Origin: an uncultured Oscillospiraceae bacterium | Lineage (GTDB): Bacteria; Bacillota; Clostridia; Oscillospirales; Oscillospiraceae | DNA length: 64,000 bases | Assembly: GCA_944387115.1 (NCBI GenBank) | Contig: CALXDR010000004.1 | Span: 699-64,698 of the forward strand | Reading direction: 5' to 3' | Position numbers and translations under genes: made by a program | The notes under the pieces: model-generated | Told to the model about the DNA's origin: nothing | Database searches by the model: none | Seen by the model: the letters and a program-made list of their open reading frames with translations, nothing else | Shown here: positions 12,435 to 51,080 of the stretch, one piece after another | Position numbering within the stretch: position 1 is the stretch's first letter | Layout of the letters: each line of letters starts with the position of its first letter

Positions 12435-12668
12435 CCTGCATCCTATTAAAAAAGGCCTTGGGGGTTTGGGATGGCTCGGACGCTTCTAAGATGTCACGCC
12501 TCGCCTGCTCACGACGCTCGGCTTCCCTCCGATTCGGGACACAAACAGGCCGGCCGTGCCGTCCTTGGTTTGTATCCCTCACTTCGGTCCATCCGAGCTG
12601 TTCGCAACGGCTCGGACGCTTCTAAGATGTCACGCCTCGCCTGCTCGCGACGGCTCGGGCGCTTCTAA
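12435..12668 (-). repeat. Mosaic palindromic repeat array 2
   Basis: Reverse strand reads GAAGCGCCCGAGCC...GAAGCGTCCGAGCCGTTGCGAAC...GAAGCGTCCGAGCC followed by a degenerate T-module start. Confidence 0.88.
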
Positions 12669-13005
12669 TCAAACATATGCTCTAGGTTCCGATAATCCGG
12701 CGTTGTGGAAGTTGGGGGGATGAAGTGTATCGAAGTTTGGCGCATTTTTGGAGAAAAAGCGATATTTTTTCTCCAAAAAGCGTACTTCAACAACTTCAAC
12801 ATAGTTTTCAACAAACAAAGATAGGATGTGGAACCTGAGGGAGGTAGACATAACAAAAATCACGCAAGGAGAATGCTGGGAGATTTTTGGGGATATTGGA
12901 GGTCGAAACGGGGGATTTCTCCACAGCAGCGCACTTTTCCATGGGGGAGAGAGGGCTGGGGGGTGAGGCGGTGGAGAGGGGGTGTCTTTGTGGAAGGCGG
13001 AAACG

Positions 13006-18254: not shown

Positions 18255-18412
18255 ATTCGGGGGGGCTGCGCACTTCTTTGTTGTCACGCCTCGCCTGTTC
18301 GCGACGGCTGGCTTCGCTCCGATTCGGAACAAAACCGGGTGGCTACGCCCCCCTGGGTTTTATTCCTCGCTTCGCTCCATCCAGCCTGCTCACGACGGCT
18401 CGGACGCTTCTA
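18255..18412 (-). repeat. Mosaic palindromic repeat array 3 (single unit)
   Basis: Begins in the TAG stop of the upstream permease (TAGAAGCGTCCGAGCC); close match to unit at 1850-1966. Confidence 0.9.
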
Positions 18413-32593: not shown

Positions 32594-32775
32594 CCTTCGG
32601 TCTAGCCCATCCGAGGGGCGGCGGGGTTCGGACGCTTCTAAGATGTCACGCCTCACAACCCGCCGCTGTCCCTCGGCTTCCCTCCGACTCAGGGCAAATC
32701 CGGTCGGGCTATGCCCGCCCTGGGTTTTGCCCTTCGCTCCGGTCCATCCGAGCTACTCCGGGGGTTCGGCACTTC
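32594..32775 (-). repeat. Mosaic palindromic repeat array 4
   Basis: One full unit close to 50675-50815 plus a truncated unit sharing CCGAACCCCGCCGCCCCTCGGATGG with 41279. Confidence 0.88.
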
Positions 32776-32840
32776 TTTATATTCTACATGATACGACGGG
32801 AAATAACAACTGGGAAATGGGGGTGGGGGGCAACGGCAAA

Positions 32841-39305: not shown

Positions 39306-39518
39306 GCCGTCTCACCCTTTGTTGTCAGTGCCCCGCCCCCTTCCGGGGGCGAGGCTGACAGATACCTTCAAATGTTCGAGTTACGCACTGAGTGCAGGCC
39401 GGAGGGGAGCTACCCTCCGGCCTGCATTCATTTTGCGGGGCAATGGGGAGATGGGGCGGGGAGGGTGTATCCCCAGCGCCGGGTGGGGCATAGAGTGGGG
39501 CAGAGAGGAGGGGGAGGT

Positions 39519-40997
39519 ATGCGCCTATCCCAACTGCTGGCCCCGCTGGGGCTGGCGTGTACACAGGACACCGAGGTGACAGGGCTTGCCTGTGACTCCC
39601 GCCACGTCAAGCCGGGGATGCTCTTTGCAGCCCTGCCCGGCCAGCACCGCCGGGGGGAGGATTACATTGCCCAGGCGGTGGAGCGGGGGGCCTGCGCAGT
39701 GCTGCGGGGGGAGGAAGGCGGAGCAGCGGGCGTAGGGGTGCCCTGCATCACCGTGAAAAATCCCCGGCGCACCCTGGCGCTGCTGGCGGCGCAGTGGTAC
39801 CAGCACCCGGCCCAGTCCCTCACCCTGCTGGCGGTGACAGGCACCAAGGGCAAGACCACCACGGCCCATATGCTGCGGGACATCCTGCTGGAGGCGGGAT
39901 ACCGGACGGGGATGGTGGGCACGCTGGGCACCTTTTTGGGGCGGGAGCAGCTGGCTGTGCCGGACAACACCACCCCGGAGCCCATTACCCTCCAGGCACA
40001 GCTGCGCCAGCTGGCGGATGCGGGGTGTACCCATGTGGTGCTGGAGGTATCCTCCCAGGCCATGAAGCAGGAGCGGTTGGCGGGGGTCACGGTGGACGGG
40101 GCGCTGTTTCTCAACCTGTCCCCAGACCACATTGGGCCGGGAGAGCATGGCAGCTGGGAGGAGTACCAGGCGTGCAAGGCCCGGCTGTTTGCCCAGTGCC
40201 GCCTGGCGGTGGGCAATGGGGACGACCCCAGCTGGAGCGCCATGGCAAAGCGGATTCCCCCTGGCGTGGCGCAAAGCACCTTTGGCTTTGGCCCTGGGGT
40301 GAGCCTGCGGGGCAGTGGGGTGGAGCCTGCGGGGGATGGGCTGTCCACCCGGTTTTCTGTATCAGACTGCGACGCCCCCTATCAGGTGGCGCTGCCCGGG
40401 CAGTTCAACGCCGCCAATGCCCTGGCGGCAGTGGCGCTGTGCCGGGCTATGGGGGTGGAGGATGGAGCCATTCGAGGAGGGCTGGCGGGGGTAAAGGTGC
40501 CTGGACGCACCCAGCGGGTGGAGGGGGTGGAGCACCCCATGGTGCTCATCGACTATGCCCACAATGGGGAGAGCGTCCGTGCCCTCCTCTCTGCGCTGTC
40601 CGCATACCCCCACCGGCGGCTGATTGTGGTGTTTGGAGCGGGGGGCGACCGTCCCCCCATGCGGCGGCGGGATATGGCGCTGGCGGTGGCGGAATGGGCG
40701 GATTTGGCGGTGGTCACCGAGGACAATCCCCGGTGGGAGCGGGTGGAGGACATCTGCGCCCACATCACTGCCGCCCTGGGCAGCCGTATCCCCTGGCGGG
40801 TGGAGTACAACCGGGAGCGGGCCATCCGGTTGGCGCTGGAGCTGGCAGGGCCGGAGGATCTTGTGGCGCTGCTGGGCAAGGGGCATGAGCGATACATCGA
40901 GTGCCAGGGGGTGCGCCGTCCCCTGTGGGAGGAGGAAGTGGTTAGGGAAGCGTCCGAGCCGTTGCGAACAGCCCGGATGGAGCGAAGTGAGGAATAA
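39519..40997 (+). CDS. murE: MurE ligase paralogue 1 (DNPR motif, meso-DAP type)
   Basis: VTGTKGKTTT, TTPEP, EVSSQA, IDYAHN, GAGGDR, TEDNPR; last ~16 codons come from repeat array 5. Confidence 0.9.
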   Translation: MRLSQLLAPLGLACTQDTEVTGLACDSRHVKPGMLFAALPGQHRRGEDYIAQAVERGACAVLRGEEGGAAGVGVPCITVKNPRRTLALLAAQWYQHPAQSLTLLAVTGTKGKTTTAHMLRDILLEAGYRTGMVGTLGTFLGREQLAVPDNTTPEPITLQAQLRQLADAGCTHVVLEVSSQAMKQERLAGVTVDGALFLNLSPDHIGPGEHGSWEEYQACKARLFAQCRLAVGNGDDPSWSAMAKRIPPGVAQSTFGFGPGVSLRGSGVEPAGDGLSTRFSVSDCDAPYQVALPGQFNAANALAAVALCRAMGVEDGAIRGGLAGVKVPGRTQRVEGVEHPMVLIDYAHNGESVRALLSALSAYPHRRLIVVFGAGGDRPPMRRRDMALAVAEWADLAVVTEDNPRWERVEDICAHITAALGSRIPWRVEYNRERAIRLALELAGPEDLVALLGKGHERYIECQGVRRPLWEEEVVREASEPLRTARMERSEE

Positions 40998-41480
40998 AAC
41001 CCAGGGGGGCGAAGCCACCCGGTTTTGTTCCGAATCGGAGTGAAGCCGGGCGTCGTGAGCAGGCGAGGCGTGACATCATCGAAGCGCTGAGCGCTTCAAA
41101 AAAGTCCAAGGACTTTTTTGAGGGGATGCAGGGGGAATAGGGTTCGATTCCTTCGGAATTGTCACCCCATTCCCCCTGAGAAGAGTGTTTTCCGAGGCGC
41201 ATGTCCCCGGAAAACACAGGATTGGACTTTATTTCGCCGCCTGCGGGCGGCGAAACTCTGTGAGACAGAAGCGAAGCGTCCGAACCCCGCCGCCCCTCGG
41301 ATGGACTGGAGCGAAGGGCAAAGCCCAGGGAGGGCACAGCCCGGCCGGGTTTGCCCTGAGTCGGAGTGAAGCCGGGCGTCGTGAGCAGGCGAGGCGTGAC
41401 ATCATCGAAGCGCTGAGCGCTTCAAAAAAGTCCAAGGACTTTTTTGAGGGGATGCAGGGGGAATAGGGTTCGATTCCTGT
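40947..41480 (+). repeat. Mosaic palindromic repeat array 5 (2 units + 1 full and 1 partial T module)
   Basis: Starts inside murE 3' end; 41040-41150 duplicated at 41364-41478. Confidence 0.92.
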
Positions 41481-41505
41481 AGGAGCCTTCCACCCCCGCC
41501 AATGG

Positions 41506-41544
41506 AAACACCCCGTACTCCTGCAATGGGAGTACGGGGTGTTT
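41506..41544. terminator. Bidirectional terminator between the two murE genes
   Basis: AAACACCCCGTACTCC...GGAGTACGGGGTGTTT. Confidence 0.85.
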
Positions 41545-41567
41545 TGTCTGTTATCCGTTGGAGGGCT

Positions 41568-43127
41568 TCAGGCTCTGGCCTGATCTTCCGTATCTATCAG
41601 ATGCGCAATCTGGCGGGCCTCATACTCTTCCAGGAAGGTGCGCACATAGTCCACATCGGAGGGGGTTTCGATGTATTCCAGCCCCCGCTTTTGCCGGGTC
41701 TCTGCGCCCTTTCCGGTGATGAGGAGGACGGAGGGGGTTTTGCAGCCCAGCACCGCCTGGCGGATGGCCTCCCCTCGGTTGGGCTGAATGTCGTAGGGAC
41801 AGCCGGCGGCCTCCACATGGGCGGCAATTTCCCGGCAGATGTCCATGGTGTTCTCCTCCCCGGAGTCCTCCTCGGTGAGGATGACAAACTGGGAGTGCTT
41901 GCCCGATACCTCGCCCAAATCCCGGCGGCGGTCAAAGGCCTTTTTGCCGGGACAGCCAAAGACGGTGACAATGCGCCGCTTGGGGTACTCCTCCGCCACC
42001 GAGCGGAAGAGCGCCTCAAAGCTCATGCGGTTGTGGGCGTAGTCCACCACGGCCACCACCCGGCGGTCGGTGCTCTGGAATACCTCCATCCGGCCGGGCA
42101 CCTGGGCCTGCTCCAGACCCTGCTGCACCGCCCACTGGGGGATGTTCAGGGCCAGACAGATGGTGATGGCGGCCAGGGCATTTTCCACGTTGAACATACC
42201 CGGCATGGACAGCTGGTAGTGGCCGGAGAGATGTCCTGCCTCCACCTGGAGGGTGATGTGATTCCCCACCTTGCGCACCCGCCGGGCGAACACATCCGCC
42301 CACCGGTCACGGCGGGAGAAGGTGAGGGCTTTGGCGGCGCTGCGGTGGGCGGCGGAGAGGATCCGGGGGGCGTGGGCGGCGTCCAGGTTGACACAGGCCG
42401 TCTGTGTCTGGGCAAACAGCTTGAGCTTGGACTGGAAGTAGTCCTCGAAGTCGGTGTGCTCCACAGGAGAGATGTGATCCTCGCCGATGTTGAGGAAACA
42501 GCTGGCGGCAAAGTGGGTGCCTAGAGTGCGGTGATATTTCAGAGCCTGGGAGGATACCTCCATCACCATATAGCCCAGACCGGACTGGATGGCATTGGAA
42601 AAGTGGCGCTGCAGCTCGATGGGTTCCGGGGTGGTGAGGTGGGATTCAAACTGTTCCACGCCGTCGTAGGTGTCAATGGAGGAGATGACGCCGCAGGCGC
42701 TGTTGCGCTGGGCGAGGTAGGCGTCCAGAATATACTTCAGATAGTAGGTAGTGGTGGACTTGCCCTTGGTGCCGGTGATGCCGATGACGGGCAGGCGCTG
42801 AGAGGGGTCGTGGTAAAACTGCACCGCCAGCAGGGGGAGGGCACGGCGGATGTCTGTGACCTGAATGCAGGGCAAATCCACATCGGGGTAGGGGGTTTCG
42901 CTGACATAGGCAAGGGCGCCGCTTTGGGCGGCCTGCACCAGATACTCCGGCTTGAAGTGGGCGCCCTTGCACACAAATAGGGTGTTGGATATGACGTGCT
43001 GAGAGTTGTCGGAAACCGACCGTACCTCTTGAGACATGGGGAAGCTGCGCAGCGGGGGGACGGCAAGCAGGCCTTCCCGTTGGAGCAGGGCGCAGTACAC
43101 GCCCAGGGTGTCATAGTGTTGTTGCAT
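41568..43127 (-). CDS. murE: MurE ligase paralogue 2 (no DNPR motif; probable Lys/Orn type)
   Basis: ITGTKGKSTT, TTPEP, EVSSQA, VDYAHN, TEEDSGEE replacing TEDNPR. Confidence 0.85.
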   Translation of the reverse strand: MQQHYDTLGVYCALLQREGLLAVPPLRSFPMSQEVRSVSDNSQHVISNTLFVCKGAHFKPEYLVQAAQSGALAYVSETPYPDVDLPCIQVTDIRRALPLLAVQFYHDPSQRLPVIGITGTKGKSTTTYYLKYILDAYLAQRNSACGVISSIDTYDGVEQFESHLTTPEPIELQRHFSNAIQSGLGYMVMEVSSQALKYHRTLGTHFAASCFLNIGEDHISPVEHTDFEDYFQSKLKLFAQTQTACVNLDAAHAPRILSAAHRSAAKALTFSRRDRWADVFARRVRKVGNHITLQVEAGHLSGHYQLSMPGMFNVENALAAITICLALNIPQWAVQQGLEQAQVPGRMEVFQSTDRRVVAVVDYAHNRMSFEALFRSVAEEYPKRRIVTVFGCPGKKAFDRRRDLGEVSGKHSQFVILTEEDSGEENTMDICREIAAHVEAAGCPYDIQPNRGEAIRQAVLGCKTPSVLLITGKGAETRQKRGLEYIETPSDVDYVRTFLEEYEARQIAHLIDTEDQARA

Positions 43128-43148
43128 GGGGAGTACCTCAATCTTTCT

Positions 43149-43841
43149 TTAGATTTTGCCGCAGGCAGACAGTGCGCAGTCGGCCAGCACTGCCATGGCA
43201 TCCAGGTAGAAGGGGGGCAAGGGGTGGTGGGAGGCAAAGACGGACAGCTCTGTGCAGGCCAGAATGGCGCAGTCGCACCCGGCGGCACGAATGGCGGCGT
43301 CAATGGCAGCAAAGGTGTGGGGGCAGCCCCGCTGGCCCTGCTTAATCTGGTCATAGATGAGGGACATGACCAGGCGCTGGGTGTCCCCGTCCGGGGCCAC
43401 CGCCTCCAGGCCCAGGGCGGCACAGGCCTGCTGGTACAGCCCGGTGCGGATGGTGCCGTCGGTGGCCAAAATGCCGGGGCGGCGCAGCCCCTGCCGGGCC
43501 AGGGCGGCGGCGGTCTGCTCAATCATGTTGAGCACAGGCACCGGGGCTTCCTGCTGGAGCCGGGGCACAAAGTAATGGGAGGTGTTGCAGGGGATGGCAA
43601 TGGCAGTGCAGCCGCACTGGCACAGCTGGAGCACATCCGCCAGCAGGCGCTGATAGAGCGGTTCGGTGTGCCCGGATAGGATGGCGGCGGTGCGGTCGGG
43701 CATCCCCGTATCTGAGAGAATTACCGTGGGCAGGTGGTCCTGATCCCGGGCGGCAGGGGTGCGGTCCAAAATGTATTGGTAGAATAGCTGGGTGGCCTGG
43801 GGGCCCATGCCGCCCAAAATGCCTAATTTCCCGTCAAACAT
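43149..43841 (-). CDS. Aspartate/glutamate racemase family, probable aspartate racemase
   Basis: GILGGMGPQAT, both catalytic Cys (IPCNTSH, LACTELS), ILATDGT. Confidence 0.9.
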   Translation of the reverse strand: MFDGKLGILGGMGPQATQLFYQYILDRTPAARDQDHLPTVILSDTGMPDRTAAILSGHTEPLYQRLLADVLQLCQCGCTAIAIPCNTSHYFVPRLQQEAPVPVLNMIEQTAAALARQGLRRPGILATDGTIRTGLYQQACAALGLEAVAPDGDTQRLVMSLIYDQIKQGQRGCPHTFAAIDAAIRAAGCDCAILACTELSVFASHHPLPPFYLDAMAVLADCALSACGKI

Positions 43842-43852
43842 GGCGCTGCTCC

Positions 43853-45067
43853 TCACTTATTGGGCTTGGGGGTGTACTTGTAAAAGCGCACATAGGTCCC
43901 GATATGGTTTTTCAGAATGCGCAGCAGGCGGTGGGGGGTGTAGTCCCCGGCATACTCCATGGAGTGGTGGTCGGTGCCCCGTCGGAACAGCGCCTTCATC
44001 TGGCTGTGGTAGGCCTTGGGGATGAAGGTGTAGGCCAGGCGGCGGGGAATCATCCGCCAGATGGTGCGGTCCTGCACCACGGTCAGGGGCAAGTCCTTGT
44101 GCTCCAGCAGGTCTTCCACCAGATAGCGGGCGATGTTGTGTCCCGAGCCGGTGACATAGTAGTTGCTGCGGCCCTGGCGGCAGTTGATTTCAAAGGCCTT
44201 GTACTTGCCATCCCGGCTGTCGTACTTGATGTCCAGGTTGGAGAAGCCCACATAGCCCAAATCCTCCAGCATGACCTGCACCCGGCGGCACAAATCCTGG
44301 TCGTACTCGGTGATAATCACTGCATGGTTGCCGATGCCGTGGGGGGAGTGCTCCTCCAGCAGAACATGGCCCAGGCACATCAGCTTGACCTTGCCCGCCG
44401 TGTCGGAGTAGTTGGTGAGCACCCGCATATAGGTGTCGTCACCGGGGATGAATTCCTGGAGAATCATACTGCCGGGATATCCGGCGGCGTACACCTCGTC
44501 CAGCGCCTCCAGCAGCTCCTGCCGGCTCTGGCAGATGTACACCTTTTTCAGTTCGCTGTGCCCTGTGGCCCAGTAGGCCACCCCGTCAGAGGGCTTGGCG
44601 ATGTAAGGAGGGGCCCAGGGAAGGGTGAAGTCGTGACCCATCTCGGGGCGGTACACCACAGTGGCGGGATGGTCAATGCCATACCGGTCGCACAGGGCGT
44701 AAAATTGCTCTTTGTCGGTGAGCTGGTCCATCAGTGCGCCGGAGATGTAGTTGCAGCGCACATTGTCCGGGAACTGGGGCTTGAGGTGGGCGGCCAGCTT
44801 CACATAGTTGTCCCCGCACCCAACCAGCAGGATGGTCTTGTCGGGGTGCTCCTGGGCCACGGTGCACACGCTGCGCAGGAAGGTGGCCTCGTGATCGTTG
44901 TCGGGGCAGGGGCGATAGTCAATGATGGAGCTGTACGAGCAGGGGAAGGACACATATTTGCCGTAGACGATGCTCTTGACTCCATAGGCCTCGTGAAAGG
45001 CCCGGGCCATACTGTACACATTGATATCCCCTCCAAATAGGAGGGGCTGAAAGGCGGGGTTGGACAT
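43853..45067 (-). CDS. ATP-grasp carboxylate-amine ligase, D-aspartate ligase (Asl)-like
   Basis: GGDINVYSMARAFHE, ILQEFIPGDD, YVGFSNLDIKYD, FEINCRQGRSNYY. Confidence 0.82.
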   Translation of the reverse strand: MSNPAFQPLLFGGDINVYSMARAFHEAYGVKSIVYGKYVSFPCSYSSIIDYRPCPDNDHEATFLRSVCTVAQEHPDKTILLVGCGDNYVKLAAHLKPQFPDNVRCNYISGALMDQLTDKEQFYALCDRYGIDHPATVVYRPEMGHDFTLPWAPPYIAKPSDGVAYWATGHSELKKVYICQSRQELLEALDEVYAAGYPGSMILQEFIPGDDTYMRVLTNYSDTAGKVKLMCLGHVLLEEHSPHGIGNHAVIITEYDQDLCRRVQVMLEDLGYVGFSNLDIKYDSRDGKYKAFEINCRQGRSNYYVTGSGHNIARYLVEDLLEHKDLPLTVVQDRTIWRMIPRRLAYTFIPKAYHSQMKALFRRGTDHHSMEYAGDYTPHRLLRILKNHIGTYVRFYKYTPKPNK

Positions 45068-45169
45068 GAAACAATCAATCTCCTTACACGCTGTCCCGGA
45101 GGACAGTCGGACTGCGAAAAAGTGTTCTGTCCCGGCGGGACAGAGGGGGGTTAGGCATGGCAGAGCCGC

Positions 45170-47407
45170 TCACCCTGTGGCACGGCGCACCCCCAGCACG
45201 CCGGGAACCTGGGAGAGCTTGTTGATGATGCTGGTAAGCTCCTTCTGGTCTTTCACCACCAGGTCCAGGATGACCACGGCATAGCCGTCGGGCTGGGCCC
45301 GGGCGGACATATTGCTGAGCTTGGCTTTTTGGGCGGACAGCGCCATGGCCACATCCAGGGCCAGGCCATCCCGGTCCTTGGCGGACACCTCCAGGCTGGT
45401 GTGGTAGGAGGTCTGCTCGCCATCCACCCAGGACACCTCCACCCAGCGCCCTGCCTCTTCCGGTTTGCGGCGGGCGGGATCGGCGTTGGGGCAATCCTTG
45501 CGGTGGATGGACACGCCATAGCCCCGGGTGATAAAGCCCACCACCGGGTCGCCGGGGACGGGGGTGCAGCATTTAGAAAACTTCACCATGCAGTTGTCCA
45601 GCCCCTCCACAATGATTCCGCTCTCCGAGCGGCGGGGGCGGGGGGCGGAGGTCTGCTTGGCGGTGGCGGGGAACACCGTCTCCCCGGCGGACAGGGAGGC
45701 GTGCATGGCCTGGCGGTCGGCGTGCTGCCGCTCCAGACGGCCCAGGCGGGTCAGCTCCTCCTTCATCCGGCCCACCGCCTTAGCTGCGGACATACCGCCG
45801 TAGCCGATGGCGGCATACAGCTCCTCCAGGGCGCCGAAGCGCACCCGCTTGAGCAGGGTGTCCAGCAGCTCAGGGGAGGCGGTGATGGCGGACATGGTCA
45901 GTCCGGCGTGCTTCAGCTCCGCCTCGAAGGCGGCCCGTCCGGTGACGATATTCTCCTCCCGGCGCTCTTTCTTGAACCACTGGCGGATTTTGTTGCGGGC
46001 TTCGTTGGACTTGCAGATGTGCATCCAGTCCCGGCTGGGGCCTCGGGCAGACTTGGAGGTGAGAATCTCCACAATGTCCCCGTTTTTCAAGGGGGTATCA
46101 AAGGTGACAATGCGCCCGTTTACCCTGGCGCCCGTCATGGAGTTGCCCACGGCGGAGTGGATGGAATAGGCAAAGTCAATGGGGGTGGCTCCGGCGGGCA
46201 GGCTCTTCACATCCCCGTTGGGGGTAAAGACAAATACCTCGTCGGCGAACATATCCACCTTGAGGGTGCGCACAAACTCATCCGGGTCGGTGTCCTGCTG
46301 GCTCTCCAGCAGCTTGCGCACCCATTCAAACTCCTGCTCGGTGCCCAGGTTGCTGTTTGCCATGCCCTGCTTGTACTTCCAGTGGGCGGCCACGCCGTAT
46401 TCGGCGGTCTGGTGCATCTTCCAGGTGCGGATTTGCACCTCGAAGGGAATGCCCTCCCGCCCCACCACGGTGGTGTGGAGGGACTGGTACCCATTGGGCT
46501 TGGGGGTGCCAATGTAGTCTTTGAACCGGCCCAGCACGGGGTTGAACATATCGTGGATGGAGCCGAGGACATTGTAGCAGCTGGAGATGTCCTCCACAAT
46601 CACCCGCAGGGCATAGATGTCGAAAATCTCCCGCAGGGTCTTGCTCTGGGCGTACATCTTGCGGTAGATAGAGTAGATGTGCTTGAGCCGCCCGTACACC
46701 GTGCACTGGATGCCCTCTTTCTTGAGGCGCTGCTCAATTTGATCGCGCATCCGGGAGAGAAACTCGGAGTTTTGCTGGGTGAGGGCCTCCAGCTCCTGCT
46801 CCACCTCCTGGTAGCCCACCGGGTCCAGGTAGCGAAGGGACAGATCCTCTAGCTCCCACTTCAGCTTCTGCATACCCAGGCGGTGGGCGATGGGGGCGTA
46901 AATCTCCATGGTCTCCAGGGACTTTTCCTTCTGCTTGCGGGGGGTCTGGAACTGGAGGGTGCGCATATTGTGCAGCCGGTCGCACAGCTTGATGAGAATC
47001 ACCCGCACATCCTTGGCCATGGCCATGAACATCTTGCGCAGGTTTTCCATCTGCTCGTCCTCTTTGGAGGTGTACTGCATCCGGGTGAGCTTGGTCACCC
47101 CGTCCACCAGATTGGCTACCGTGTCCCCAAAAAGATGGGCAATATCCTCGTGGGTGGAGTCGGTGTCCTCAATGCAGTCGTGGAGCAGAGCGGCAATGAC
47201 CGAGTCGGTGTCCAAATCCAGCTCTGCCACAAGGACGGCCACGGCGATGGGGTGGGTGATGTATGGCTCGCCGCTTTTGCGCATCTGACTGCCGTGGTGT
47301 GCACGGGCATAGTCAAAGGCCTGGCGGAGGCGCTCCACGTTGGCCTCAGAATTGTTTTCAAGCACAATGTGCTCGAGGGACTGGTATTGGGTAAGGACAT
47401 GATCCAT
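45170..47407 (-). CDS. relA: Bifunctional (p)ppGpp synthetase/hydrolase (long RSH)
   Basis: RKSGEPYITHP, LHDCIED, DRLHNMRTL, KPNGYQSLHT, AEYGVAAHWKYK, TGS and ACT domains. Confidence 0.97.
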   Translation of the reverse strand: MDHVLTQYQSLEHIVLENNSEANVERLRQAFDYARAHHGSQMRKSGEPYITHPIAVAVLVAELDLDTDSVIAALLHDCIEDTDSTHEDIAHLFGDTVANLVDGVTKLTRMQYTSKEDEQMENLRKMFMAMAKDVRVILIKLCDRLHNMRTLQFQTPRKQKEKSLETMEIYAPIAHRLGMQKLKWELEDLSLRYLDPVGYQEVEQELEALTQQNSEFLSRMRDQIEQRLKKEGIQCTVYGRLKHIYSIYRKMYAQSKTLREIFDIYALRVIVEDISSCYNVLGSIHDMFNPVLGRFKDYIGTPKPNGYQSLHTTVVGREGIPFEVQIRTWKMHQTAEYGVAAHWKYKQGMANSNLGTEQEFEWVRKLLESQQDTDPDEFVRTLKVDMFADEVFVFTPNGDVKSLPAGATPIDFAYSIHSAVGNSMTGARVNGRIVTFDTPLKNGDIVEILTSKSARGPSRDWMHICKSNEARNKIRQWFKKERREENIVTGRAAFEAELKHAGLTMSAITASPELLDTLLKRVRFGALEELYAAIGYGGMSAAKAVGRMKEELTRLGRLERQHADRQAMHASLSAGETVFPATAKQTSAPRPRRSESGIIVEGLDNCMVKFSKCCTPVPGDPVVGFITRGYGVSIHRKDCPNADPARRKPEEAGRWVEVSWVDGEQTSYHTSLEVSAKDRDGLALDVAMALSAQKAKLSNMSARAQPDGYAVVILDLVVKDQKELTSIINKLSQVPGVLGVRRATG

Positions 47408-47536
47408 TACGATACCTCCTTGCTGGATTTGAGGAAGGGCCTTGCGGGCTGGGGCAAGGGCGCTGCAAGGCAAGGGGATGGGGGGCTTTCGGCAAAGGCC
47501 AGCCCGCCCGCCGTCAAAAGCGTGGGGGGTGCAGGC

Positions 47537-49612
47537 TCACTCCAGCATGGCGCGCAGCTGGCGCATCATGGGAGCCTGCTCCAAATCCGCCTTTGCGGCG
47601 GTGCGGTTGAGGCAGATGGTGGCGCTGTGGCCGGAGAGGGTGAAGCGGATGAGGTTGAGCTGCGCCATCACATGCAGGCCCACCAGGGCCTTCCCATAGG
47701 CGGCGCCGCCGCTGTGAGCCAGGGCGTGGCGGGCCAGCTGCTCCAGAGGCACCGCAGTGTCCGGCTGGGTACAGGTGCGGGCCAGATAGCGCCACAGCTG
47801 GGCGCAGTCGGGGCGCTGGGGGAGGAGCAGTCCCGCTTCCCACCGGGACAGGGCCTGTCCCGCCTGTAGGCGGTGGAACAGCTCCAGCTCCAGCTGGGGG
47901 CGGGGCGGGGCGGGACGCAAATCGCACAGCTGGAGCTGCGGGGTGCGGCTGCCCCGAAATTCGTTGATGTGGAGGGTGAAGGCCAAGTCCAGCCGGTCCC
48001 CCGGGGACACCTGACAGCTGGCGGTGTTGGCGGAGAAAAAGATGGCGTCCAGCACCTCCCCGTCCCGGCGCACCCGGAGCTTCAGGTGCCGCCCGCCGCC
48101 CACATCTCCGCAGCTGACCACATACATGGAGCGGGCGAGAAACACGGGGCGCTCGTTGCCGTGGCCTGTGGGCTCCAGCAGGTCCAGCTGATCGACGGCC
48201 TGGCAGGTGAGCTGACGGCAGCAGTCAATTTCCGCATCGATGTCCAGGGTGGATACCATGGGGGTGTGGCGGGTGTGCTCTGCAACCAAATCCCCCATGG
48301 CCTGGCGCAGGGCGGGGATTTGGTCGGCCTGAATGGTGAGCCCCGCCGCCTTGGCATGTCCCCCGAAGCCCTCCAGCAGGGGGGCGCACCGCTCCAGGGC
48401 GGCGAAGAGGTTGAATTCCCCATAGGAGCGGCAGGAGCCCTTTCCCTTGCCCTTCTCCCGGTCCAGGCTGATCATCAGGGTGGGGCGGCCGTACTGCTCT
48501 GCCAGCCGGGAGGCCACAATGCCAATGACCCCCTGGTGCCAATTCTCCCCCGCCAGCACCAGGGCCGGGCCGAGCAGCTGGGGATCTTGCTCCAGCATGG
48601 CCTGGCAGGAGTCTATGATTTCCTGCTCCATGGCCTGCCGCTCCCGGTTGAGCTCCCCCAGGGCGGAGGCCAGTTCTACCCCCCGCTCCTCCTCCCGGGT
48701 GAGGAGCAGCTCCAGGGCCAAGGAGGCGTGCTGAATGCGCCCGGAGGCGTTGAGCCGGGGGGCAATGCTGAATCCAATGGTGGCAGAGGTGGGCTGGCGT
48801 CCGTCCCGGCCCAGCACCTCCTGGAGCAGTGCGTGCAGACCGGGGCGCTGGGTGCAGGCGAGCAAATCCAGTCCGGTGCGCACCAGGGAGCGGTTTTCGT
48901 CCGCCAGCACCATCACATCTGCCACGGTGCCCACGGCGGCAAGCTCGCCATAGCGCTCCATCACCTCCTGCCGGGCCTCCGGCGGAGCCAGCGCCAGGGC
49001 CAGCTTGAGGGCCACCCCAACCCCTGCCAGCTCCTTGAAGGGGTAGGGGCAGTCCTCCCGCCGGGGGTCTACCACCGCCACCGCCTGAGGAAGGGTGTCC
49101 TTGCACTGGTGGTGGTCGGTGATGACCACATCCACCCCCAGACTGCGGGCGTATTCCACCTCGCCCACGGCGGTGATGCCGCAGTCCACGGTGATAATCA
49201 GCCCCACGCCCTGCCGGTGCAGGGCGGAGATGGCGGTGGGGTTGAGGCCATAGCCCTCCTCCATCCGGTCGGGGATGTAACTGACCACATCGCCCCCCAG
49301 CTCCCGCAGCCGCTCGGTGAGCAGGCAGGTGGAGGTGATGCCGTCTACATCATAGTCGCCGTATACCGCCATCTGCTCGCCGCTTGCCAGCGCCTGGGAG
49401 ATGCGGGCCACTGCCCGGTCCATATCCTTCAGGAGAAAGGGGTCACGGGCGTGAAAGGGGGTATCGGACAAAAAGGCCCTGGCCTTTTCCGGACTATCCA
49501 CCCCCCGGGCATACAGGACGCAGGCGCACAGCGGGGACAGCCCAAGCCCCTCCAGCGCCTGGAGCGCCCCTGTCGGTGCCGGAGGGCGCAGATTCCACTG
49601 TTTGTATTTCAT
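47537..49612 (-). CDS. recJ: Single-stranded DNA exonuclease RecJ
   Basis: DYDVDG, ITVDCG, TDHH, GTVADV, PRLNASGR, GSCRS, GGHAKAAG. Confidence 0.96.
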   Translation of the reverse strand: MKYKQWNLRPPAPTGALQALEGLGLSPLCACVLYARGVDSPEKARAFLSDTPFHARDPFLLKDMDRAVARISQALASGEQMAVYGDYDVDGITSTCLLTERLRELGGDVVSYIPDRMEEGYGLNPTAISALHRQGVGLIITVDCGITAVGEVEYARSLGVDVVITDHHQCKDTLPQAVAVVDPRREDCPYPFKELAGVGVALKLALALAPPEARQEVMERYGELAAVGTVADVMVLADENRSLVRTGLDLLACTQRPGLHALLQEVLGRDGRQPTSATIGFSIAPRLNASGRIQHASLALELLLTREEERGVELASALGELNRERQAMEQEIIDSCQAMLEQDPQLLGPALVLAGENWHQGVIGIVASRLAEQYGRPTLMISLDREKGKGKGSCRSYGEFNLFAALERCAPLLEGFGGHAKAAGLTIQADQIPALRQAMGDLVAEHTRHTPMVSTLDIDAEIDCCRQLTCQAVDQLDLLEPTGHGNERPVFLARSMYVVSCGDVGGGRHLKLRVRRDGEVLDAIFFSANTASCQVSPGDRLDLAFTLHINEFRGSRTPQLQLCDLRPAPPRPQLELELFHRLQAGQALSRWEAGLLLPQRPDCAQLWRYLARTCTQPDTAVPLEQLARHALAHSGGAAYGKALVGLHVMAQLNLIRFTLSGHSATICLNRTAAKADLEQAPMMRQLRAMLE

Positions 49613-49721
49613 GCTGTCAGTCCTCAAAGATAAAATTATCTTCTATTATAACAAACTCCGGTGATACTTGCAACTGGGGAAACCATCGGGAAAGGGGACA
49701 CTTTTTTCTCCTGTTGGAAGG

Positions 49722-50400: not shown

Positions 50401-50403
50401 ATA

Positions 50404-50945
50404 GAAGCGCTGAGCCGTCGCGAACAGCCCGGATGGACCGGAGCGAGGGATAACCATGTAAGGCAGGCGTAGCCTGCCATGGTTGTCCCGAGACGGAGGG
50501 AAGCCGGGCGTCGTGAGCAGGCGAGGCGTGACAACACAGAAGCGCTAAGCCGTCGTGAGCAGGCTGGATGGACCGAAGTGAGGAATAAAACCCAGGGGGG
50601 CGCAGCCCCCCGGTTTTGTCCCGAATCGGAGGGAAGCCAGCCGTTGCGAACAGGCGAAGCGTGACAGCGAAGAAGCGTCCGAGCCCCCGGAGCAGCTCGG
50701 ATGGACTGGAGCGAAGGGCAAAACCCAGGGCGGGCATAGCCCGGCCGGATTTGCCCTGAGTCGGAGGGAAGCCGAGCGTCAGCGGAGGGGAGAGAGGCGT
50801 GACAATGAAGAAGCGTCCGAGCCTTCTCAAAAAAGTCCAAGGACTTTTTTGAGGGGATGCAGGGGAAATAGGGTTCGATTCCTGTTGGAATTGTCACCCC
50901 ATTTCCCCTGAGTAGAGTGTTTCTCCAGGCGTATGTCCACGGGAA
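50404..50945 (+). repeat. Mosaic palindromic repeat array 6 (3 different units in tandem + T module)
   Basis: Starts 3 bp after lexA stop; three ~135-140 bp units with different central hairpins. Confidence 0.93.
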
Positions 50946-51080
50946 AGAAGAGCGTACACAATCTTACGCACCTGGGGCAAGGCGTTCAAACGCTGTAGGG
51001 CCGGGGGAAAACCGCCCCGGCTCCATCATTTCGTGGCGTTTTAGCGGGGCAGGCGCCCGGAGGAGAGAGGGGGTGGGGAG

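Follow-up and report, generated by a model that had tools for sequence, protein, structure and literature searches.

How would one gut bacterium use two MurE ligases whose substrate pockets point to different third residues of the peptidoglycan stem? The question is raised by a locus in a stretch of DNA of 64,000 nucleotides (nt; here called the window, to whose full length all positions refer) from an uncultured Oscillospiraceae bacterium of 62% G+C, found in the guts of chicken and other animals, whose nearest named relatives are Candidatus Enterenecus and Pseudoflavonifractor. The locus holds murE1 (39519-40997, plus strand; 492 amino acids, aa), a predicted meso-diaminopimelate (meso-DAP)-adding MurE, and murE2 (41568-43127, minus strand; 519 aa), a non-DAP MurE that is unfused in the window and is predicted to add L-ornithine (L-Orn) or else L-lysine (L-Lys). 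Beside murE2 lie racD (43149-43856, minus strand), encoding a two-cysteine aspartate racemase independent of pyridoxal phosphate, and asl (43853-45067, minus strand), encoding an ATP-grasp carboxylate-amine ligase that is a predicted D-aspartate ligase. All four genes were intact and sited as an initial annotation of the window had placed them and, because they are full-length and strongly scoring, chance was set aside as an explanation of the locus. murE1 and murE2 are convergent, with a spacer of 570 nt, and murE2 is the last gene of a tightly packed run, recJ-relA-asl-racD-murE2, in which the asl stop and the racD start overlap by 4 nt and 21 nt separate the racD stop from the murE2 start. 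For comparison, one genome per species was scanned for relatives of the ligase; at least 483 were found, and the best 80 of these are all Oscillospiraceae. The loci used for comparison are labelled L001 onward.

The answer that we favor, and which we place just on the probable side of even, is a vegetative wall of the L-Orn (or L-Lys)-D-Asp kind made by a constitutive operon, together with a meso-DAP MurE that serves the spore cortex. The constitutively transcribed recJ-relA-asl-racD-murE2 run would supply the vegetative wall, with L-ornithine as the most likely third residue and L-lysine a less likely one. RacD would convert L-Asp to D-Asp, Asl would activate the beta-carboxyl of D-Asp as an acyl phosphate and then ligate it to the side-chain amine of the third residue, and the product would be an A4-type (Orn/Lys-D-Asp) cross-bridge. 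murE1 would be a separate transcription unit, nearly silent in growing gut populations and read from a mother-cell-type (sigma-K-like) promoter, and its product would make DAP-containing precursors for the spore cortex, as in Lysinibacillus sphaericus. The capacity for both wall chemistries, which the initial annotation had proposed, gains support from the two different MurE signatures and from the Asl/racemase pair, while the substrates themselves stay predictions.

In Lysinibacillus (Bacillus) sphaericus, Tipper and co-workers reportedly described in the 1970s a Lys-D-Asp vegetative wall, a meso-DAP cortex and a DAP-adding enzyme induced at sporulation, an account that our literature search did not confirm. 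The two cases are alike in having two third-position ligases (predicted here), of which the non-DAP one is active in growth, with the DAP enzyme here low in RNA and behind a putative sporulation-type promoter. They differ in that the present evidence is genomic and transcriptomic only, the lineage is an anaerobic one of the gut, the two genes are adjacent (in tandem in relatives) and the DAP enzyme has a Lys-type scaffold. No description of a two-wall arrangement in gut clostridia was found in the literature. The components and the two-wall logic are already known; what appears to be undescribed is the clade-wide wall prediction, a MurE-ArgB fusion in relatives, and a DAP ligase of hybrid scaffold whose sporulation-type promoter box is conserved.

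Specificity signatures of the two MurE paralogues

The ATG of murE1 is preceded by GGAGGGGGAGG, a GGAGG-rich ribosome-binding site. Its product scored 377 bits against the murE model TIGR01085 (cut-off 257) and 376.7 against the DAP-ligase equivalog NF001126, a narrow pass of the cut-off of 373. In the E. coli MurE structure, Arg389 of the GGDR motif takes part in DAP binding. The roles of the DNPR motif and of Glu468 in binding the distal centre of DAP, with its amine and carboxylate, have also been described (PMC3829189). All three of these meso-DAP features are present in the murE1 product: DNPR (aa 402-405, nt 40722-40733), the GGDR Arg (in GAGGDRP, 40635-40655) and the Glu of GKGHE (40875-40889). 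DNPR was invariant in the 21 murE1 orthologues of other species, and the P-loop, DH motif and carbamylated Lys are present in the products of both murE1 and murE2.

Three further motifs of the murE1 product, GTKGKT, DYAHN and a DH motif lengthened by two residues (DHIGPGEH), are signatures of the Lys/Orn group which, in the sample of enzymes compared, were otherwise confined to Lys/Orn-type enzymes. Five canonical DAP MurE enzymes (E. coli, Bacillus, Listeria, Subdoligranulum and Monoglobus) have GTNGKT, DHLD--YH and DYAHT instead. In murE1-type enzymes the Lys/Orn signatures lie in the central domain, and the DAP signatures (GGDR, DNPR and GKGHE) lie in the C-terminal domain. Judged by its motifs, the murE1 product is a DAP-type pocket on a Lys/Orn-type scaffold and not a typical clostridial DAP ligase; it resembles the canonical enzymes (E. 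coli 1E8C, M. tuberculosis 2WTZ, Bacillus and Listeria) in GGDR, DNPR, GKGHE and the NF001126 pass, and differs from them by its three scaffold motifs and by lying outside a dcw cluster. Such enzymes may have branched off early within the Lys-type clade as DAP-specific forms, or else they may have re-acquired DAP specificity. Domain-wise identities of the murE1 product were all about 26-39%, values from which an origin as a chimera is not discernible.

MurE2 likewise passed TIGR01085 (306 bits) and reached no equivalog cut-off. Its segment TEEDSGEE aligns with TDDNPRDE of the M. tuberculosis MurE, and the view that the two paralogues carry different specificity signatures was borne out, with DNPR in murE1 and EDSG (aa 420-423, nt 41859-41870; initially read as EEDSG) in murE2. 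At the residues that bind the DAP carboxylate MurE2 is changed (R389 to K, N414 to D and R416 to G), and at the three DAP features it has K, EDSG and GKGAE. It retains an acidic pair, E420 (the first residue of EDSG) and the Glu of GKGAE, so that the pocket is still acidic with the carboxylate binders gone, which is the logic of Lys/Orn enzymes. EDSG or a near variant (EDPG, EDAG or DDSG) was found in about 65 Oscillospiraceae species. Homologues of MurE2 are labelled 'Mur ligase family protein' or '2,6-diaminopimelate ligase' in annotation, and the latter label is probably wrong. A cyanophycin-synthetase-like or other non-peptidoglycan Mur ligase was also considered for MurE2 and was ruled out by its end-to-end alignment with MurE and its standing as the only well-expressed MurE at the locus.

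An ArgB fusion and the choice between ornithine and lysine

The reading frame of MurE2 runs on without a break into an ArgB (acetylglutamate kinase) domain of about 270 residues at no fewer than 23 of the 66 informative loci. The fused domain scored 228.7 bits against TIGR00761 (cut-off 151.3), keeps its kinase motifs and scores far lower as LysZ. Fusions of 788-794 aa were found at L017:11950-14334 and at L018, L019, L021, L025-27, L030, L032, L048-52, L055, L057, L061-64, L066, L070 and L080 (proteins P0247, P0257, P0260 and others). Independent gene callers gave the same 788-789-aa proteins, and PF00696 occurred together with Mur ligase domains in about half of the 120 closest homologues. 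In some lineages only a truncated ArgB remnant follows MurE2. Of the cultured species that carry the operon, Flintibacter faecis and Muriventricola aceti have an ArgB-fused murE2, whereas that of Pseudoflavonifractor phocaeensis and P. capillosus is unfused or cut off by the contig; Flavonifractor sp. An100 is another cultured carrier. No description of a MurE-ArgB fusion was found in the searchable literature. The committed kinase of the ornithine pathway is ArgB, whose presence as a domain of MurE2 orthologues suggests that the partner ligase consumes ornithine; the fusion would be a Rosetta-stone link between ornithine supply and wall synthesis.

Outside Oscillospiraceae, the MurE of Collinsella aerofaciens (39% identity, motif EDPA) matched MurE2 best among the PLSDB records searched; this organism is said to have been assigned the A4-beta (L-Orn-D-Asp) type by Kageyama et al. 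in 1999. The Collinsella enzyme, like MurE2, begins its motif with Glu in place of Asp and is 44.5% identical to MurE2 in the central domain; it differs in having Pro-Ala where MurE2 has Ser-Gly, and its fragment shows no linkage to asl or racD. On the strength of the ArgB fusion in relatives and this match, L-Orn seemed about twice as likely a substrate of MurE2 as L-Lys. The L-Lys/Orn substrate first proposed for murE2 thereby stood as to its non-DAP signature and was narrowed in favor of Orn. The Collinsella murE (L084:5904-11413) is flanked by asnB and murI, and this asnB (asparagine synthase) is possibly the enzyme that amidates D-Asp.

The same architecture with a MurE2 that adds L-lysine would give an A4-alpha (Lys-D-Asp) wall, as in E. 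faecium, Lactococcus and most lactobacilli, and we regard this as possible although rather doubtful. It is in Lys-D-Asp organisms that the Asl/RacD pair is best known, and GTKGKT, DHIxPxEH and DYAHN are common to MurE2 and two L-Lys ligases, that of E. faecalis (35-37% identity) and that of Latilactobacillus curvatus. The L-Lys model NF010628 is also among the top three matches of MurE2, and the window copy is without the ArgB domain. However, MurE2 scored 330.5 against the NF010628 equivalog cut-off of 536, and its EDSG departs from the D(D/N)P(A/G/N) of Lys enzymes (DDPA in E. faecalis, DDPG in L. curvatus, DNPA in S. aureus) at the first, amine-binding position. The ArgB domain of its orthologues belongs to the ornithine pathway and not, by its scores, to LysZ, and Collinsella provides its closest outside relative.

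A fuller version of the ornithine reading is offered here more tentatively than the two-wall scheme itself. MurE2 would ancestrally have been an ArgB-fused L-Orn ligase, the fusion acting as a built-in ornithine-supply module, perhaps insulated from arginine feedback, in a gut clade, both large and abundant, with an A4-beta Orn-D-Asp vegetative wall; DAP would be found only in the spore cortex of murE1 carriers, made by the DAP ligase with the Lys/Orn scaffold. If true, the clade would consist of Flavonifractor, Lawsonibacter, Pseudoflavonifractor, Flintibacter and Enterenecus and its vegetative wall would be without the DAP ligand of NOD1, with the murE1 carriers being Enterenecus-like.

The ligase and racemase pair

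Asl gave no match in Pfam and PDB sequence searches and weak carbamoyl-phosphate synthase (CPSase)-like matches in NCBIfam. When PLSDB was searched by tblastn, Asl matched a 'carboxylate-amine ligase' of L. curvatus at 34% identity and 97% coverage (E 8e-83), with similar matches in L. fermentum (equal in similarity) and L. crispatus; these lactobacillar matches are chromosome fragments filed as plasmids in PLSDB. The L. curvatus homologue lies between an amino-acid racemase, 40% identical to that of the window, and aspartate-metabolism genes, near aspS. This layout corresponds to the racD-aslA arrangement of L. lactis, whose aslA-racD operon has been described, as has L. fermentum as an L-Orn organism (PMC4155827). 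Two Asl homologues are named 'D-aspartate ligase' by the Joint Genome Institute. An AlphaFold 2 model of Asl (26 homologues; mean predicted local distance difference test score, pLDDT, 85.5) had the ATP-grasp fold and, in Foldseek, the L-amino-acid ligase 3VOT and PylC 4FFL were the top matches, with biotin carboxylase and PurK also found (E about 1e-13 to 1e-15). PylC joins D-ornithine to the epsilon-amine of lysine. As a putative D-aspartate ligase, Asl combines the ATP-grasp fold with lactobacillar homology and, at about 65 loci in Oscillospiraceae, with a linked Asp racemase gene.

The racemase scored 188 bits against TIGR00035 (cut-off 93), and its closest solved relative was the Pyrococcus horikoshii aspartate racemase 1JFL (E 3e-43). 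Cys90 (CNT, 43587-43589) and Cys201 (CTE, 43254-43256) align with Cys82 and Cys194 of 1JFL. With both catalytic Cys residues in place, an ATP-grasp model of the ligase and a racemase-linked homologue in lactobacilli, the pairing of an Asl-type ligase with a two-Cys Asp racemase seen in the initial annotation proved genuine. As with Aslfm/Racfm of Enterococcus faecium and AslA/RacD of Lactococcus lactis, with which the comparison was made via the lactobacillar counterpart (34%), an ATP-grasp ligase and a two-Cys Asp racemase share one operon. The window pair differs in being operonic also with its own MurE and with relA/recJ, in a probable Orn acceptor, and in its high-GC anaerobic clostridial lineage.

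That the product of asl-rac-murE2 is something other than a D-Asp cross-bridge, such as a D-cysteate-containing or other non-peptidoglycan compound, seems to us highly improbable. The racemase does pass the CuyB cysteate-racemase equivalog NF052483 (198.9, just over the cut-off of 190), and neither Pfam nor NCBIfam has a family specific to Asl. Its neighbours, however, are peptidoglycan genes and not cuy genes, and in this context we regard the CuyB match as more probably an annotation hazard than a real alternative, one which puts the racemase at risk of a 'cysteate racemase' label in annotation pipelines. Further, MurE2 is a full three-domain MurE (TIGR01085) and the one with appreciable expression at the locus, the same ligase-racemase pair is found beside aspS in Lys-D-Asp lactobacilli, alr adjoins asl in one relative, and among solved structures the one closest to the racemase is that of an Asp racemase.

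Expression of the locus

RNA was assessed in seven gut or faecal metatranscriptomes from three studies, with contig depth as the measure. The run from recJ (47537-49627, minus strand), the housekeeping gene that heads it, through relA/spoT (45170-47473, minus strand), a further co-directional housekeeping gene, to murE2 had a near-uniform depth of about 10-88 in six of the seven runs and a lower, patchy depth (0-9) in X42. The depth over murE1 was 0 in four runs and 0-6 in the other three; in the four runs in which it was zero the neighbouring operon was detected, at a depth of 10-29 in three of them. Single RNA contigs spanned relA-asl-racD and racD-murE2, and RNA contigs ended at about 41547, at a perfect hairpin (41505-41545; 16-19 bp, with T-runs on both strands) that serves as a bidirectional terminator of the murE2 operon. 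DNA depth was equal for the two murE genes in four runs (31.7 versus 31.3, 156 versus 164, 13-21 versus 22, and 10-12 versus 14), which argues that the contrast in RNA is not due to DNA carry-over. These data show strongly unequal expression in gut metatranscriptomes, with the murE2 operon on and murE1 near or at zero.

ptb and buk lie upstream of murE1 on the same strand. A hairpin with 21-nt arms followed by TTTT (39389-39430, plus strand) lies between buk and murE1 and is likely the terminator that ends the buk transcript, so that murE1 would not simply be read through from ptb-buk.

A promoter-like box upstream of murE1

The box CATAGAGTGGG (39489-39499, plus strand), a -10-like element of sigma-K/sigma-E type, is found 30 nt before the murE1 ATG in the window. 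It was first spotted by eye and then by anchored alignment. The conserved form, AC-N17-CATA(G/C)AnTGGG, lies 34-41 nt 5' of the ATG in 20 of 21 aligned relatives, within otherwise diverged sequence. Seventeen of these 20 have 'AC' exactly 17 nt upstream of CATA, two have GC, and in one the element is shifted by one base. L091 carries the box too, as AC-N17-CATACATTG. The box fits what we take to be the Bacillus sigma-K consensus, AC-N16/17-CATAnnnTA. When about 1.6 Mb of sequence was scanned on both strands (3.15 Mb in all) with a regular expression for the box, 22 hits had an open reading frame (ORF) downstream, and in 20 of these it was a murE1 orthologue. Near murE1, a sigma-70 scan gave no sites and regular expressions for the strict Bacillus sigma-E, F, G and K consensus gave no match. 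From sequence resemblance, murE1 orthologues thus appear to share a promoter box of sporulation type (sigma-K-like, mother-cell), which would provide a simple handle for testing stage-specific wall chemistry in an anaerobe.

The promoter of spoIIID in Vescimonas fastidiosa (L087:9040-9125) has the same -10 (CATAGGATG) as the murE1 box. It is of sigma-E type, TCATATT-N14-CATAGGAT, with a textbook sigma-E -35, and is a useful reference for sporulation promoters of Oscillospiraceae. The murE of this species has the motif DDPD and follows secA-pgeF-SBP, outside a dcw cluster. The only other match to AC-N17-CATAGAnTG among the loci (L023:20619-20646) precedes a gene for a P-loop protein (MPNIQYFLGGNTPAGFYSLY...GGPGSGKST), with an ORF cut by the end of the locus, which might be a further member of the same regulon.

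Conservation, inversion and selection

The synteny asl-racD-murE2 was found in about 65 species, at essentially every locus with enough flank, in genera that include Pseudoflavonifractor, Flavonifractor, Lawsonibacter, Flintibacter and Muriventricola. At one locus (L093:6853-12367, GCA_020025425.1), alr lies directly upstream of asl-racD-murE2::argB, so that three D-amino-acid or peptidoglycan precursor functions are clustered. In Intestinimonas (L077-L079) recJ-relA-asl is kept, and no racemase or murE2-type gene was found in the 3-9 kb available downstream. The co-occurrence of the operon with a DNPR-type murE, suggested initially as a check, was seen at the level of the locus: in 21 related species a murE1 orthologue lies directly downstream of murE2 on the same strand, at a distance of 95-770 nt. 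Where the flank is long enough (L017 and L030), buk and ptb lie beyond murE1 on the opposite strand.

When the window (39430-40997) was compared with L001-L032, L071, L073, L091 and L094, its murE1 was inverted relative to all 21 relatives, and hence lies on the same strand as buk and after it. The inversion retained only about 30-40 nt upstream of murE1. The buk-murE1 junction was confirmed by independent contigs from other samples, and no convincing flanking inverted repeats able to explain the inversion were found. The last 16 codons of murE1 (40947-40997; ASEPLRTARMERSEE and the preceding E) are encoded by a repeat element of the spacer, while orthologues stop about 10 residues earlier with a tail unrelated to that of the window copy.

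Identity to orthologues was 56-62% for murE1, 64-69% for MurE2 and 74-82% for Asl. Over ten species pairs the ratio of nonsynonymous to synonymous substitution rates (dN/dS) was 0.14-0.41 for murE1 and 0.07-0.24 for murE2. murE1 is under purifying selection, with a constraint about twice as relaxed as that on murE2 or asl, as expected for a gene that some generations can do without.

Two other roles for murE1 have to be weighed against a cortex enzyme. It might be a low-level or conditional vegetative enzyme, used for example when Orn or Lys is scarce and giving mixed DAP and Orn stems in one wall, which we think unlikely. murE1 RNA was low but not zero in three runs, the window copy is without the -35 AC, and sporulation by this organism is hypothetical; there is also the precedent of S. 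aureus, in which MurE selectivity is partly set by substrate pools (PMC3829189). However, the spacing and sequence of the box are of a mother-cell sigma type with no sigma-70-like site in the scan, RNA was at zero in the other four runs with the operon detected alongside, and constraint is relaxed in the manner of a gene dispensable in some generations. Alternatively, murE1 might be a decaying duplicate without a current role, which its faster evolution than its neighbours, its inversion, repeat-derived tail and lost -35, and its near-zero RNA would fit. This we hold to be very unlikely, since the ORF is intact with every catalytic and DAP-binding motif present, dN/dS is as given above, and about 21 species have kept DNPR and the promoter box.

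Weighing the two-wall reading

Several observations weigh against a vegetative Orn/Lys-D-Asp wall with DAP reserved for the cortex. The window murE1 has 'TC' where relatives have the -35 'AC', with the conserved -10 remaining; together with its inversion relative to the 21 relatives, this means that its regulation may differ from theirs. The sigma assignment is by resemblance to Bacillus consensus sequences, contig word depth reflects expression poorly, and no sporulation genes were found within the 64-kb window. The developmental switch suggested by the initial annotation is accordingly supported in part: the conserved sigma-K-like box of murE1 orthologues and the low murE1 RNA fit it, and the lost -35 and inverted orientation of the window copy do not. 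As to substrate, the window MurE2 ends at 519 aa and no ArgB match was found anywhere in the window, whose lineage appears to have lost the ArgB domain entirely, and the CuyB score of the racemase stands beside its TIGR00035 score.

Subdoligranulum variabile has an asl-rac pair (L083:7974-9965 and L090:5893-7425; 44% and 48% identity) without an adjoining murE2-type gene, and the sole MurE seen for this species is of DNPR type, which suggests that Asl-type ligases may not require a Lys/Orn stem. S. variabile might place D-Asp on a DAP stem, or might have a murE2-type gene on an unsampled fragment. The wall type of Collinsella, too, has only indirect backing, from a review of gut peptidoglycan in which the Collinsella paper is the reference given for 'Eubacterium' under A4-beta (PMC11382707). 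In the table of this 2024 review the peptidoglycan type is blank for Oscillibacter and most Ruminococcaceae, and the literature searched gave no data on the type of Flavonifractor, Pseudoflavonifractor, Intestinimonas, Lawsonibacter, Flintibacter or 'capillosus'.

Whether muropeptides can stimulate NOD1 once released depends on the third residue of the stem. From the conservation of asl-racD-murE2 one would predict that a whole abundant butyrate-producing clade is non-DAP during growth and, if this is true, the altered NOD1 sensing proposed in the initial annotation would follow by logic alone.

Intergenic repeats and hairpins

The murE1-murE2 spacer is filled by two tandem copies of a structured intergenic repeat (40947-41518). 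The repeat family is composite and hairpin-rich, with units of about 60-190 nt and an RNA fold z-score of -7.7, and occurs in the window at 1434-2108, 12483-12685, 18273-18412, 32672-32779, 40947-41518 and 50403-50965. A search with Rfam at the gathering threshold gave no family in the window; the repeats were unmatched and the spacer gave sub-threshold noise. In DNA runs the repeats had a k-mer depth about 45-50 times that of single-copy sequence, in RNA runs their depth was very high, and assemblies break there. Short-read contigs also break within the repeat-filled spacer (40975-41450), so the join of murE1 to murE2 rests on the assembly of the window itself; the gene order equals that of relatives. 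The relA-asl spacer (45068-45169) has two CTGTCC...GGGACAG hairpins with a T-run after the first, which may act as a partial terminator or attenuator, although RNA contigs cross this spacer.

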